Source of the DNA: a bacterium
GTDB taxonomy: Bacteria; Patescibacteriota; CPR2; UBA1875; JAJYID01
Direction: 5' to 3'
Length of the DNA stretch: 64,000 bases
NCBI GenBank assembly: GCA_030647205.1
Contig: JAUSJO010000002.1
Span: 11,261 to 75,260, forward strand
Shown: in pieces, positions 3,905 to 45,342 of the stretch
Layout: every line of letters begins with the position of its first letter
Position numbering within the stretch: the first letter of the stretch is position 1
Notes under the pieces: generated by a model
The model's input: only the letters and a program-made list of their open reading frames with translations
Database searches by the model: none
What the model was told of the DNA's origin: nothing
Made by a program: the position numbers and the translations under genes

Positions 3905-4911
3905 AGTCTTTCTCCATATTGTTTTTCATAATATTTTTGGTACTCGCCGCTCAAAATATTTTGGATCCAGTCCGCATTGTCGAGATTCCACTTGATGGTT
4001 TTCTCAATGCCTTCGTCAAACGTAACTCTCGGTTTCCAACCAAGTTCTTTCGTAATTTTTGAGTGGTCAATCGCATATCTTCTATCGTGCCCCGGCCTAT
4101 CCTTCACAAATGTCATCAAGCTCTCCGGTTTTTCCAGTGATTTTAAGATTGTTTCCGCCATTTGGTTGATGCTTCTTTCACTGTCTCCGCCGACACAGTA
4201 TGTCTCTTGAGATTTTCCCTTTTCGAGAACCAGGGCGATAGCCTCACAATGGTCGTCAACATAGAGATAGTCTCGGATATACTCACCGTCTCCGTAAATT
4301 GGGAGGGGTTTATCTTCTCTGGCGTTGGCCACAAAAAGAGGGATCATTTTTTCCGGAAACTGATACGGGCCATAGTTGTTTGAACAGTTTGTAATCGTAT
4401 ATTCAAGGTCAAAAGTATCACCATACGCTCTAACAAGATGATCAGAAGACGCCTTTGAGGCAGAGTATGGACTGTGCGGATCATACGGAGTATTTTCATC
4501 GAATTTTTTGCCGCCGTCTAGGCCTAGAGCGCCGTAAACTTCGTCGGTTGAAACGTGGTGAAATCTTTTGATCTTGTTTTCAAGCGCCGCCTGAAGCATC
4601 ACTTGCGTGCCCACAACATTTGTTTGGATAAACACGCCGGGCTCAAGAACCGACCGGTCAACATGGGACTCAGCCGCAAAGTGAACAACATAGTCAACCT
4701 TACTCATTAAATCATTAACCAGTTTTGGGTCGCAAATATCGCCTTGAACAAACTCGTAACGAGAGTTGTCCTCTAGGCTTTTTAGACTCTCCAAATTACC
4801 GGCATAAGTCAGTTTGTCTAGATTTATAATATCCCAATCGCGGTTTTTCAAAACCCAATGTATAAAGTTCGCGCCTATAAACCCCGCGCCACCCGTAACT
4901 AACACTTTCAT
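3901..4911 (-). CDS. rmlB: dTDP-glucose 4,6-dehydratase
   Basis: MKVLVTGGAGFIGANF ... YxxxK SDR. Classic RfbB similarity. Confidence 0.9.
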   Translation of the reverse strand: MKVLVTGGAGFIGANFIHWVLKNRDWDIINLDKLTYAGNLESLKSLEDNSRYEFVQGDICDPKLVNDLMSKVDYVVHFAAESHVDRSVLEPGVFIQTNVVGTQVMLQAALENKIKRFHHVSTDEVYGALGLDGGKKFDENTPYDPHSPYSASKASSDHLVRAYGDTFDLEYTITNCSNNYGPYQFPEKMIPLFVANAREDKPLPIYGDGEYIRDYLYVDDHCEAIALVLEKGKSQETYCVGGDSERSINQMAETILKSLEKPESLMTFVKDRPGHDRRYAIDHSKITKELGWKPRVTFDEGIEKTIKWNLDNADWIQNILSGEYQKYYEKQYGERL

Positions 4912-30014: not shown

Positions 30015-30104
30015 GGTGAGGTGGCCGAGTGGTTGAAGGCAGCAGTCTTGAAAACTGCCGTGCCGGCAACGGTACCGTGGGTTCGAATCCCACCCTCACC
30101 GCCA
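30015..30104 (+). tRNA. tRNA-Ser (anticodon TGA)
   Basis: GGTGAGG acceptor, D-arm GCC/GGC, anticodon loop CTTGAAA, long variable arm, GGTTCGAATCC T-loop, G73, encoded CCA. 90 nt. Confidence 0.85.
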
Positions 30105-30122
30105 TGATACAATTCAAATAGT

Positions 30123-30215
30123 GGAGAGGTACCCAAGTGGCTCAAGGGGCGGGTTTGCTAAACCTGTAGGTTGGGGTAACCCGGCGCGGGGGTTCGAATC
30201 CCCCCCTCTCCGCCA
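30123..30215 (+). tRNA. tRNA-Ser (anticodon GCT)
   Basis: GGAGAGG acceptor, anticodon loop TTGCTAA, long variable arm, T-loop TTCGAAT, encoded CCA. 93 nt. Confidence 0.85.
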
Positions 30216-32910: not shown

Positions 32911-33000
32911 GGAGAGGTCGCATAGTGGTCTAGTGCGCCGCCTTGGAAAGGCGGTATATCTGAAAGGGTATCGAGGGTTCGAATCCCTCCCTCTCCGCCA
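32911..33000 (+). tRNA. tRNA-Ser (anticodon GGA)
   Basis: GGAGAGG acceptor, anticodon stem CCGCC/GGCGG with loop TTGGAAA, long variable arm, encoded CCA. Confidence 0.85.
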
Positions 33001-43530: not shown

Positions 43531-44076
43531 ATGAAGCCAGTCGAAGTCATTGATAAATATTATAAGAAAGGATCAATATCTCGCCGATTCTTGGTCGAGC
43601 ACAGTAAGTCAGTGGCGAAAAAAGCCTTAGAAGTGGCAAAAAATGTGCCGGAGATGAAACCGGACTTACGGTTTATTGAAGAGGCCTCAATGTTGCATGA
43701 TATTGGAATTTTTCTTACAAATGCCCCGGTTATTGGCTGCTCTGGCGATAAAGAATATATCTGCCATGGCTATTTAGGAAGAAAAATACTAGAGAAAGAG
43801 GGGTATCCAAAACATGGACTTGTTTGCGAAAGACATTTGGGTGTTGGTATATCACTTGAGGAGATTGAGGTTCGAAACTTACCGCTTCCAAAAAGAAATA
43901 TGCTGCCGATATCGCTCGAGGAAGAAATTATTTGTTTTGCCGATAAGTTTTTTTCAAAAGGTGAAGGATTATTAAAAAAGGAGAAATCACTTGAAGATAT
44001 CAGAAAAAGATTGCCGGATTTTGGAAACAGCCAAGAAATATTTGAAGGTTGGATGGTAAAATTTAAGTGTAACTAA
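43531..44076 (+). CDS. HD-domain metal-dependent phosphohydrolase
   Basis: ...MLHDIGIF... (H..HD) and downstream His/Asp residues. Confidence 0.65.
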   Translation: MKPVEVIDKYYKKGSISRRFLVEHSKSVAKKALEVAKNVPEMKPDLRFIEEASMLHDIGIFLTNAPVIGCSGDKEYICHGYLGRKILEKEGYPKHGLVCERHLGVGISLEEIEVRNLPLPKRNMLPISLEEEIICFADKFFSKGEGLLKKEKSLEDIRKRLPDFGNSQEIFEGWMVKFKCN

Positions 44077-44090
44077 CAAGTAGTCAGAGT

Positions 44091-44106
44091 GGAGAGGTGC
44101 CAGAGT
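44091..44106 (+). other. orphan tRNA-like 5' half (acceptor strand plus start of D arm)
   Basis: GGAGAGGTGCCAGAGT matches the 5' ends of the Ser tRNAs in this window. Followed by a 17-bp-arm hairpin, not by a D/anticodon arm. Confidence 0.4.
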
Positions 44107-44172
44107 CCCCGCATTCGCAGGGCAGGAGTCGAATGAGGCGCGCCCCGCGAATGCGGGGGGCGAAAAGGGTTT

Positions 44173-44424
44173 ATGGGATATAATATGTATTACGTTTACA
44201 TTTTAAAAAGCAAAACAGATGGCAAATATTATTTTGGCTCAACCGCTGATTTGAAAAATAGATTCAAAGAGCATAATGCAGGCAAAGTAAAGTCGACAAA
44301 AAATAGGGTGCCATTTGAGTTAGTGTGCTATGAAGCCTATTTGACAAAAACTATTGCTTTAAATAGAGAAAAATACTTAAAATCTAGTGATGGCCATAAA
44401 GATATAAATCGAAGATTTAAATAA
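44173..44424 (+). CDS. GIY-YIG nuclease-superfamily small protein (YhbQ/UPF0213-like)
   Basis: MYYVYILKSKTDGKYYFGSTADLKNRFKEHN (GIY-x10-YIG, Arg, Glu). 83 aa. Stops 5 nt before the tRNA. Confidence 0.65.
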   Translation: MGYNMYYVYILKSKTDGKYYFGSTADLKNRFKEHNAGKVKSTKNRVPFELVCYEAYLTKTIALNREKYLKSSDGHKDINRRFK

Positions 44425-44429
44425 TTTAC

Positions 44430-44521
44430 GGAAGGGTGCCGGAGTGGTTGAACGGGGCAGTCTCGAAAACTGTTGTCCTGCTTACGCGGGACCGAGAGTT
44501 CGAATCTCTCCCCTTCCGCCA
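44430..44521 (+). tRNA. tRNA-Ser (anticodon CGA)
   Basis: GGAAGGG acceptor, anticodon stem GCAGT/ACTGT with loop CTCGAAA, long variable arm, GAGAGTTCGAATCTCTC, G73, encoded CCA. Confidence 0.85.
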
Positions 44522-44577
44522 GATAGCTTTGAGAGGTTCGCCCTAAATCCTCAGGGCGCCCCGCGAATGCTGGGGCG

Positions 44578-44596
44578 AATCCCACCCTCTCCGCCA
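44578..44596 (+). other. orphan tRNA-like 3' end (degenerate T arm plus acceptor strand plus GCCA)
   Basis: ...TGGGGCGAATCCCACCCTCTCCGCCA parallels TGGGTTCGAATCCCACCCTCACCGCCA of tRNA-Ser(TGA), with a 1-nt deletion in the T loop. Confidence 0.4.
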
Positions 44597-44610
44597 AATG
44601 AGAAAATGTA

Positions 44611-45342
44611 ATGTTTGATACAAAACTAAAAACATCTGAATATATAAACTTAACGGTTACACACGATTGTACCCGCCGGTGCTTATTTTGTGTGGATCGT
44701 TATCGTGGAAGCGGGGAAATGGTTAGTCTTGACGCCGTCCATCGTGTAGCGGCATTTGCTTCGAGAAGAGGGATTAAGGACATACTTATTACTGGCGGGG
44801 AGCCAACTCTTCATCCCGATATAGTGGAGATTGTGAAAATAGTTAAAAAATATGGACTTCGCGTCATTATGACGACTAACTATGACCGGCCGAACGTATT
44901 TGAGAAACTTGATGGGATCGTTGATTGCTTCAATATTTCTTTCTATAATCAAGCCCTTTTGCCAAAACAAAAAGAAACAAGGTCCGATATTACTATCCAT
45001 GCATTGATTTATGATGAACAACTGGAGACACAAGAAAAACTGGATCGGTTTATTGATAGATATCATCACTACGGGCATTTGAAATTTTCAACTTTAACTC
45101 CCTGCAATGCATGGACGACCGAACACCAGCACGTCTCATACTTAGACGATCTTGAGTGTGAATGGATAGTTCTATTTAATGAGATGCTAGCCCAAGTCTA
45201 TCGTGGAGTAGTTATAAAAAGGTATGATAGGATTATTAGCAGAAACGCGTCCCAGTCTTATAAGGCTCACGTTGATGGGACTATTACTAAGTCGTGGGAC
45301 AGGGAGAGAACCTCCACTCTCTCCGCCAAGGCAAAAGTTTGA
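44611..45342 (+). CDS. small radical SAM enzyme (no SPASM domain)
   Basis: CTRRCLFC (CxxxCxxC) and GGEPTLHPD. 243 aa. Confidence 0.7.
   Translation: MFDTKLKTSEYINLTVTHDCTRRCLFCVDRYRGSGEMVSLDAVHRVAAFASRRGIKDILITGGEPTLHPDIVEIVKIVKKYGLRVIMTTNYDRPNVFEKLDGIVDCFNISFYNQALLPKQKETRSDITIHALIYDEQLETQEKLDRFIDRYHHYGHLKFSTLTPCNAWTTEHQHVSYLDDLECEWIVLFNEMLAQVYRGVVIKRYDRIISRNASQSYKAHVDGTITKSWDRERTSTLSAKAKV

Follow-up and report, generated by a model that had tools for sequence, protein, structure and literature searches.

A cassette with a minimal GIY-YIG nuclease gene and a complete tRNA-Ser inside a resident tRNA-Ser(CGA) gene of a Patescibacteria genome

Introduction

The GIY-YIG enzyme SegB of phage T4 has a recognition site that contains GGTTCRANTCC, leaves 2-nt 3' overhangs, and drives its own gene's inheritance along with that of neighbouring transfer RNA (tRNA) genes, which replace those of the recipient (PMC2330249). 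Here, we compare SegB and other described systems with a locus at 44091-44596 of a stretch of 64,000 nucleotides from a Patescibacteria genome (the window; assembly GCA_030647205.1, contig JAUSJO010000002.1, positions 11,261 to 75,260). At this locus a tRNA-Ser(CGA) gene lies in pieces around a cassette of ~480 bp that contains a small GIY-YIG nuclease gene and a complete tRNA-Ser(CGA). We argue that a small selfish element probably entered the resident tRNA gene, namely a homing endonuclease cassette of the SegB type that brings a spare tRNA.

Several other systems provide points of comparison. Introns in Patescibacteria tRNA genes that bear a homing endonuclease gene are reported to use HNH enzymes (10.1101/2025.07.03.662931), and such introns in transfer-messenger RNA (tmRNA) are reported to use LAGLIDADG enzymes (PMC11915505). 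Host genes broken by a free-standing endonuclease gene have been described as fractured genes (PMC2677866). tRNA genes are also the targets of integrase islands, and for archaea a model exists of how such genes are disrupted (PMC3293823). A survey of the GIY-YIG superfamily from 2006 describes the prokaryotic stand-alone Slx1-like proteins of the UPF0213 type as its minimal form, assigns them no function and mentions no link to tRNA genes (PMC1564403).

Results

The resident tRNA gene and its empty site in a close relative

A homologue (P0122) with 91% identity to the HD-domain protein encoded upstream of the locus lies on contig L086 (12 kb). This contig has the same three upstream genes as the window, and the aligned DNA is ~89% identical. 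An uninterrupted tRNA-Ser(CGA), GGAGAGGTGCCAGAGTGGTCGAATGGGGCGCTCTCGAAAAGCGTTGTCCGTTCACGCGGACCGTGGGTTCGAATCCCACCCTCTCC, is found 14 nt downstream of the HD gene in L086. The site is thus empty in L086 and filled in the window, a presence/absence polymorphism as expected from the original prediction, which had proposed a mobile cassette bringing its own replacement tRNA and a comparison of empty and filled sites in relatives. On the evidence of this empty site in a close relative, the resident tRNA gene gained the cassette. The features of the locus are as follows:

44091-44106, plus strand: 5' fragment of the resident tRNA-Ser(CGA), positions 1-16, GGAGAGGTGCCAGAGT; 16/16 identity to the start of the intact L086 tRNA
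44107-44122, unstranded: GC-rich junction hairpin unit CCCCGCATTCGCAGGG of the ATTC-loop type in the resident D-loop; missing from L086
44123-44141, plus strand: resident tRNA piece, ~positions 17-31 (remainder of the D arm with most of the anticodon-stem 5' strand)
44143-44158, unstranded: second junction hairpin unit CCCCGCGAATGCGGGG of the GAAT-loop type, an inverted copy of 44107-44122
44159-44164, plus strand: GGCGAA, putative remnant of the T-loop 3' half (CGAA), assigned from related loci
44185-44424, plus strand: GIY-YIG nuclease gene (Pfam PF01541), 79 amino acids from the conserved Met; an upstream ATG at 44173 gives 83 amino acids
44430-44521, plus strand: inner intact tRNA-Ser(CGA) with encoded CCA (ARAGORN, Rfam tRNA), the replacement tRNA
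44531-44540, plus strand: cassette-borne T-arm 5' half GAGAGGTTCG, nearer to GAGAGTTCG of the inner tRNA than to GTGGGTTCG of the resident
44541-44575, unstranded: right-junction double-hairpin module, CCCTAAATCCTCAGGG + CG + CCCCGCGAATGCTGGGG, flanked by TTCG and CGAATCC
44576-44596, plus strand: 3' end of the resident tRNA-Ser(CGA), CGAATCCCACCCTCTCCGCCA, i.e. CG-AATCCCAC-CCTCTCC-G-CCA

Aligned with the L086 allele, the window is identical over tRNA positions 1-16, has a hairpin insertion of ~20 nt, and continues with positions ~17-31 with one mismatch (44123-44141; GAGTCGAATGAGGCGC in the window aligned to GGTCGAATGGGGCGC in L086). The second hairpin and the cassette follow, and then the 3' end, where CGAATCCCACCCTCTCC has 17/17 identity to the L086 tRNA. 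This alignment identifies the outer pieces as what is left of a resident tRNA-Ser(CGA) gene. Positions 32-57 of that gene, which comprise the anticodon loop with the 3' strand of its stem, the variable arm and the T arm's 5' half, are gone from the window, and therefore the outer pieces are unable to encode a tRNA and represent neither an intron-containing nor a split tRNA. Hence, the gene ends seen in the original prediction are real, but a split into two halves does not describe the locus, because a third resident piece lies within 44123-44141 and positions 32-57 are missing. The 3' end was likewise present, at 44576-44596 rather than as the longer string from 44572. The acceptor strands GGAGAGG and CCTCTCC (7 nt each) are fully complementary with ~490 bp between them, as had been noticed.

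The 17-bp-arm hairpin noticed earlier was found at 44107-44123 and 44142-44158, with arms that are 94% complementary and a folding energy of -36.2 kcal/mol (z = -5.9). The near-identity of the boundary repeats was also borne out (19/20 between 44140-44159 and 44556-44575); they are not simple target duplications, being copies of the junction module. A search for the 16-mer hairpin yielded three copies in the window, all at this locus, against 0.21 expected. This excess, and the equality of the L086 tRNA ends to both outer fragments, put the arrangement beyond chance. The pattern CCCNGC-ATNC-GCNGGG of the unit at 44107-44122 is that of the first hairpin of a T-loop module found at many loci, and the flanks TTCG and CGAATCC of the right junction are the same as in 27 distinct metagenome modules. 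The right-junction module is inverted relative to that of the related loci L001 and L002. Assignment of GGCGAA at 44159-44164 as T-loop remnant follows related loci, where the module and CGAATCC are separated from the ATG by ~10 nt.

The complete inner tRNA-Ser(CGA) of the original prediction was recovered by ARAGORN and by Rfam RF00005, with 54.6 bits against a gathering score of 29. Its identity to the resident allele is 78%, and the differences are paired changes that affect every stem (acceptor, D, anticodon, variable and T). Since these stem changes are compensatory and the outer pieces are unchanged, the inner tRNA is of foreign origin, judging from the two alleles, and came with the cassette. 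It starts 5 nt past the nuclease stop codon. The nuclease gene is the only open reading frame (ORF) within the cassette.

The covariance-model search proposed for the locus thus detected the inner gene, whereas the outer pieces (44091-44106 plus 44576-44596) gave no Rfam tRNA match even at E <= 10. Neither a group I intron (RF00028) nor any other Rfam family was found in the intervening DNA (43900-44800, E <= 10), and at gathering scores Rfam reported only five ordinary tRNAs in the whole window. Sub-threshold matches to PK-repBA and microRNA families at the locus simply reflect the long hairpin. A promoter and terminator scan gave counts at the level of shuffled sequence and called no hairpin a terminator, and the cassette hairpins lack T-runs. 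No integrase gene or direct att repeats were found at the locus; the 3' ends differ (CTCTCCCCTTCC versus CCCACCCTCTCC; D1, 79% identity).

A few further observations concern the locus itself. The cassette sequence GAGAGG at 44531-44536, before the right TTCG, pairs with CCTCTC at 44588-44593 of the resident acceptor; this likeness between the inner T stem (GAGAG) and the resident acceptor stem is probably fortuitous. The right junction alone folds into a small acceptor-like helix, two hairpins and a 3' GCCA (-29.9 kcal/mol, z = -2.6). We also recombined the two boundary repeats in silico to rebuild a 90-nt tRNA and rejected this solution; the product folds as a rod, without a cloverleaf. In the window four tRNA-Ser isoacceptors lie within 15 kb, at 30015-30104 (UGA), 30123-30215 (GCU), 32911-33000 (GGA) and 44430-44521 (CGA). 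Contig L086 ends inside the 3' acceptor strand of its intact tRNA-Ser(CGA) (4551-4647), which could point to strain heterogeneity downstream of the tRNA in that sample. For the radical-SAM gene downstream of the cassette, the best match in the search for an orthologue in a close relative was only 61% identical, and the empty site was covered on its left flank.

The nuclease

The ORF at 44173-44424 (83 amino acids) matched the Pfam GIY-YIG family PF01541 with E = 3e-17 and 63.1 bits against a cutoff of 22.6, which confirms the YhbQ-like GIY-YIG gene of the original prediction. Its length is probably shorter, 79 amino acids (44185-44424), because 28 homologues begin at an internal Met of the window protein, four codons after the mechanical ORF start. 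The longer form is used in database annotation; an exact-sequence lookup of the 83-amino-acid form found nothing on record. Residues Y7, Y9, Y20, G22, R30, H34, E54 and others are invariant in 29 aligned sequences, so that the motifs and the active-site Arg, His and Glu of the GIY-YIG superfamily are all present. Profile matches to known structures include 1zg2 (E = 1e-12) and 1ywl (E = 2e-7), both UPF0213, and weakly SLX1 (6seh, E = 0.009). By these motifs and matches, the predicted protein belongs to the stand-alone minimal prokaryotic Slx1-like (UPF0213, YhbQ-type) proteins. NCBIfam and PHROGs gave only sub-threshold homing-endonuclease matches.

The family is large, with 5,554 clusters at E <= 1e-10 in a profile search of 50%-identity representatives. 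Homologues number in the hundreds, mainly in assemblies of Patescibacteria, i.e. the Candidate Phyla Radiation (CPR), and their hosts comprise metagenome-assembled genomes of CPR, Bacteroidota, Planctomycetota and Omnitrophota. Phages yielded one weak match in IMG/VR (38% identity) and none among GenBank phages; this near absence ruled out a phage source of the nuclease.

Recurrence of nuclease and tRNA at other loci

The closest homologues (59-76% identity) are encoded directly upstream of tRNA-Ser (GGA, TGA, GCT) or tRNA-Tyr. We inspected four of them in their DNA context (L001, L002, L005 and L006). L002, L005 and L006 have the same order: the 5' part of a tRNA-Ser up to the T-loop TTCG, two GC hairpins and CGAATCC, followed after ~10 nt by the nuclease ORF and a complete tRNA-Ser whose anticodon is that of the outer one. 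L002 additionally retains the outer tRNA's 3' end behind the complete tRNA-Ser, and in L001 a module with a 3' fragment lies downstream of the intact tRNA.

A wider scan, with nine close sequences as query and one genome per species, yielded 79 loci. Among 95 nuclease copies, 43 had a same-strand tRNA starting between -60 and +150 nt from the stop codon, where 0.011 was expected per copy; this is an enrichment of ~40 times background. The linked isotypes were Ser, Glu, Ala, Trp, Leu, Cys, Pro, Tyr, Val, His and Arg. In 25 of the 43 cases the nearest protein relative was linked to the same tRNA isotype, a number reached in none of 1000 permutations, and hence target preference differs between nuclease clades. 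Of the 11 proteins closest to that of the window, ten were linked to Ser and one to Tyr. Adjacency to a tRNA gene and a patchy distribution among lineages, both traits of free-standing, Seg-like homing endonuclease genes, are accordingly seen in this family.

Many loci have a fragment of the same tRNA upstream of the ATG (5' fragment), downstream of the intact tRNA (3' fragment), or both. Long outer 5' fragments are identical to the inner tRNA in L011 and L012, and those of L002, L005 and L006 differ from it only in the acceptor and T stems. In both of these stems the 5' fragment pairs with the 3' part of the tRNA, and such differences suggest chimeric tRNAs that may have been re-matched by compensatory change. 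Across many lineages and tRNA types, the sequences compared here show the nested architecture recurring at dozens of independent loci.

Some loci are more complex. L005 contains a further tRNA-Ser 5' fragment, GGAGAGGTCGCATAAC (2291-2306), 80 nt upstream of the long outer fragment, which hints at successive invasions of one locus. The order is mirrored in L131 (1-470, the reversed L110 locus), where the nuclease gene comes after an intact tRNA-Ser(UGA) and before the 3' half of a tRNA of the Ser(GCU) type; this half has a module in its T-loop and a 3' end equal to that of the intact tRNA. L029 (1158-2087) has three tandem nuclease units of 315 nt, two of which are 100% identical.

The double-hairpin module

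At the junctions of the Ser/Tyr clade, GGTTCG is followed by a 16-nt hairpin, CG, another 16-nt hairpin and CGAATCC. The module (M) is therefore a 34-nt insertion between G57 and A58 of the T-loop with CG on each side, TT[CG]-M-[CG]AA. When metagenome contigs were scanned for the exact pattern of GGTTCG and the first hairpin, 54 loci with 56 sites were obtained; these had 40 distinct module sequences, mostly of exactly 34 nt. For the analysis of covariation we used 27 distinct modules chosen by their 3' flank only, such that the second hairpin was unconstrained by the search. This hairpin was 100% paired in all 27, and both-side changes occurred in five of its six pairs. Covariation was 0.359 compared to 0.084 in shuffled data (reached in 0 of 500 shuffles), and it collapsed when partner columns were slid. 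Together, the covariation and the full pairing show that two small hairpins are kept by selection. The palindromy of the module as a whole was only partial (0.6-0.94), whereas each hairpin was individually perfect, which implies that the conserved structure consists of two small hairpins and not of one long hairpin.

GC hairpins were fourfold enriched within a few hundred nt of nuclease genes. A nuclease ORF was found directly downstream of the module at five of the 56 sites, and within a few hundred nt at nine of the 54 loci. The ORF-less sites, at at least 12 tRNA isotypes, followed mainly two patterns. In pattern A, an intact tRNA is followed after 0-45 nt by GGTTCG-module-CGAATCC and a copy of the tRNA 3' end. 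In pattern B, the 5' part of a tRNA runs through GGTTCG-module-CGAATCC and is followed by a short spacer and an intact tRNA. At several pattern-A sites (L095, L115) the fragment stems from another allele than the intact tRNA, as in the window. Examples of such partial tRNA copies beside intact tRNAs, among loci L090-L143, are:

L091, 6579-6625: module site
L092, 3553-3599: module site
L123, 8562-8608: module site

Other module sites had additional structure. In L112 an identical 47-nt GGTTCG-module-CGAATCC unit occurs at Lys-type fragments and at a tRNA-Thr 5' fragment (1-217, 869-915). L084 (1792-2037) and L112 contain tandem units of module plus 3' fragment, with two copies each of 123 nt and 105 nt. 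The loop of one hairpin in L009 (~450-530) contains TTCG and then a second hairpin, suggesting that insertion at TTCG-like sites has happened more than once; in L090 (minus strand, ~2150-2217) a hairpin is nested in a GTAT-type loop. In L105, L107, L118 and L143 the first hairpin belongs to a cluster of three GC hairpins with an outer helix, CCCCGCAG...CTGCGGG, which is cloverleaf-like, without tRNA sequence and with no tRNA gene nearby.

Discussion

A probable homing cassette with a spare tRNA

On balance, we favour invasion of the resident tRNA-Ser(CGA) gene by a selfish homing cassette. By analogy with T4 SegB, the nuclease would act as a homing endonuclease on tRNA-coding DNA. A break in a naive tRNA gene would be repaired by copying the cassette of the carrier, with the tRNA ends as homology arms. 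The broken gene would remain unspliced, and the complete tRNA of the cassette would compensate the host, such that an insertion in a tRNA gene that cannot be spliced would be tolerated. The inner tRNA begins only 5 nt behind the nuclease stop codon, which points to a common transcript from which normal tRNA processing, i.e. ribonuclease P (RNase P), would release it. The module, which lies only in leftover fragments and inside the T-loop motif, most likely marks the point of breaking and joining. A further probable effect is either to inactivate the recognition motif left behind or to break up homology through which the cassette would otherwise be lost. ORF-less modules beside tRNA genes would be relics or non-autonomous derivatives. 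The module splits exactly the motif read by SegB, and CG on both sides, at the palindrome TTCG^AA, would be expected if 2-nt 3' overhangs had been retained, the one indirect hint of site-specific cleavage.

Several observations weigh against this explanation. The protein is a bare catalytic domain of ~80 amino acids (the Pfam match covers residues 5-72 of 83) with no further domain. A separate DNA-binding domain, as in homing endonucleases of the I-TevI or SegB kind, was not found in the 79-amino-acid form, and the homing model does not account for how it would find a tRNA gene. The inner tRNA and the three other tRNA-Ser genes of the carrier keep intact T-loops, and tRNA-Ser(UGA) at 30015-30104 is uninvaded although its T arm GTGGGTTCGAATCCCAC equals the resident one. 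Of the module sites, 51 of 56 lack an adjoining nuclease gene within the scanned 1 kb, and in L022, L084, L018 and L076, which belong to other nuclease clades, analogous double hairpins occupy the leftover copy's anticodon loop or D-loop. Neither the ORF-less majority nor these other loops are predicted by simple homing to one site. The partial tRNA duplications of patterns A and B need an extra step. Furthermore, G:T and A:C mismatches in the hairpins, which bear on a role in RNA versus DNA, stood at 16 to 10 (p = 0.33).

Alternative explanations

The main rival to homing is a hairpin-module element resembling REPIN-RAYT systems. In those systems, short palindromic doublets outnumber one associated gene, which encodes an HUH Y1 transposase and is itself flanked by palindromes. 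Here, the palindromic double hairpin would be the mobile unit, and the nuclease gene and tRNA would be its cargo. The Slx1-like nuclease would be structure-specific, recognizing or cutting hairpins in cruciform or single-stranded DNA and moving module-flanked DNA into tRNA loops. Such an element would account for the modules at both borders of the window cassette, for modules far outnumbering nuclease genes as REPINs do RAYTs, and for hairpins nested in hairpin loops (after TTCG in L009, in the GTAT-type loop of L090). It would equally fit the two hairpins being approximate reverse complements, the occurrence of the module in both orientations, and the identical 47-nt unit at two unrelated tRNA loci. 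SLX1, the eukaryotic relative with the weak 6seh match, is a structure-specific endonuclease. However, the nuclease is a GIY-YIG protein, and transposition chemistry is not known for GIY-YIG enzymes acting alone. Moreover, the three hairpin copies in 64 kb all lie at one locus, so genome-wide dispersal is not seen here, and modules occur only in tRNA fragments beside an intact copy and at no other kind of site. We therefore regard a hairpin-module element as unlikely. Local duplication and decay would reduce the outer pieces to a decayed tandem tRNA copy, the nuclease to a chance neighbour and the hairpins to terminators or RNA-stability elements. Tandem arrays do occur, and the identical outer 5' fragments of L011 and L012 look like fresh tandem duplications. 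In the window, however, the inner tRNA differs in every stem and the outer fragments match the resident allele exactly. A chance neighbour is excluded by the ~40-fold enrichment of tRNAs at the stop codon together with the clade specificity of the isotypes. The hairpins have no T-runs, the terminator scan was empty there, and one 34-nt module at the identical nucleotide in > 25 tRNA contexts is not expected from decay. This makes duplication and decay a very improbable explanation.

An arrangement that serves the host deserves about as little credence. In this case the nuclease and hairpins would assist expression or processing of the tRNA operon, or defence, and the outer ends would be processing signals that free the mRNA and the tRNA. 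With the ORF stop 5 nt from the tRNA 5' end, an RNase P cut would indeed set the mRNA 3' end; in the predicted fold of the complete 516 nt the two ends pair with each other (z = -4.9), and the hairpins are under structural selection. Yet the close relative L086 does well without the cassette, the distribution is patchy with ORF-less relics, and the GIY-YIG DNA nuclease fold has no obvious role in tRNA processing; no defence partner genes were found nearby, in a search that did not include the PADLOC library. Finally, the original prediction had considered an intron-like or permuted tRNA; on such a reading, 480 bp would be removed as RNA by group I or archaeal bulge-helix-bulge splicing. The perfectly complementary acceptor strands are in line with this, as is a possible 17-nt helix between 44107-44123 and 44558-44574 (88% complementary), reminiscent of the leaders of split tRNAs in Nanoarchaeum. 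Group I introns also occur in Patescibacteria tRNA genes (10.1101/2025.07.03.662931) and in T-loops of tmRNA (PMC11915505). However, anticodon loop, variable arm and 5' T stem are all missing from the outer gene, neither a group I intron nor a tRNA match for the outer gene was obtained at E <= 10, no Rfam family matched the intervening DNA, and a complete tRNA with the same anticodon lies inside. We consider RNA splicing extremely improbable and have abandoned this part of the prediction. In contrast, the proposal of a mobile cassette with its own replacement tRNA held up, given the empty site in L086, the foreign inner tRNA and the recurrence in dozens of loci.

Implications

Beyond the homing explanation for this locus, we tentatively propose, as a possibility that we think has less than an even chance, that the UPF0213-type minimal Slx1-like GIY-YIG proteins and the 34-nt module form an unrecognized class of mobile elements for tRNA loops. 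An 80-amino-acid nuclease that has no DNA-binding domain would be guided to its target by DNA or RNA structure, either of the hairpins or of the DNA coding for the cloverleaf; it would cut TTCG^AA and seed the templated insertion of the module with a partial or complete tRNA. If true, tRNA genes in CPR and other bacteria would be continuously replaced by foreign alleles, and the ORF-less modules would be among the smallest site-specific mobile DNAs known.

Homing into tRNA genes would give a biological role to a very large orphan protein family. It would also represent a third mode of homing-type life in an essential gene, through a spare gene copy instead of splicing of RNA (introns) or protein (inteins). 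For streamlined CPR genomes it would imply that tRNA genes continue to be replaced by foreign alleles and that tRNA pseudo-fragments arise in the process, with a bearing on tRNA annotation, tRNA-based phylogeny and the detection of mobilomes. The precise insertion TT[CG]-module-[CG]AA provides a directly testable prediction of the cut site of the enzyme.

Comparison with known systems

The searchable literature contained no description of this arrangement, which is weak evidence since most subscription journals were not covered. The locus resembles SegB in that a free-standing GIY-YIG gene lies among tRNA genes. SegB is a phage protein, roughly three times as long as the 79-amino-acid window protein, whereas here an Slx1-like catalytic domain is encoded on bacterial chromosomes, the target is left as broken fragments around the cassette, modules occur at the junctions and ORF-less derivatives are common. 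Group I introns in anticodon loops of tRNA and T-loops of tmRNA are likewise selfish insertions in tRNA-type loops, including the T-loop; they are also present in Patescibacteria, and a minority of copies keep the endonuclease ORF. In contrast to these introns, the cassette has no ribozyme, uses a GIY-YIG enzyme, and has the host gene replaced by a spare copy rather than spliced.

In fractured genes, the damage is reportedly compensated by protein trans-splicing via split inteins. Fractured genes share with this locus an essential gene that is split by a free-standing homing-endonuclease gene and whose damage is compensated in another way; here, the compensation is a second complete gene copy and the target is an RNA gene. 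Integrase islands have in common with the cassette a tRNA target, the supply of tRNA sequence that keeps the function, and fragments at the border. They differ in that the cassette has no integrase or recombinase, spans only ~0.5 kb, brings a whole tRNA rather than its 3' part, and has hairpin modules instead of att repeats at its junctions. The likeness to REPIN-RAYT systems lies in palindromic doublets that outnumber an associated, palindrome-flanked nuclease gene, and the difference in the GIY-YIG type of the nuclease, the precise position in tRNA loops, the low copy number and the link to tRNA duplication. Hence, four features set the locus apart from known systems: the minimal nuclease, the nested layout of a broken gene and a spare gene, the module, and the abundant ORF-less derivatives.

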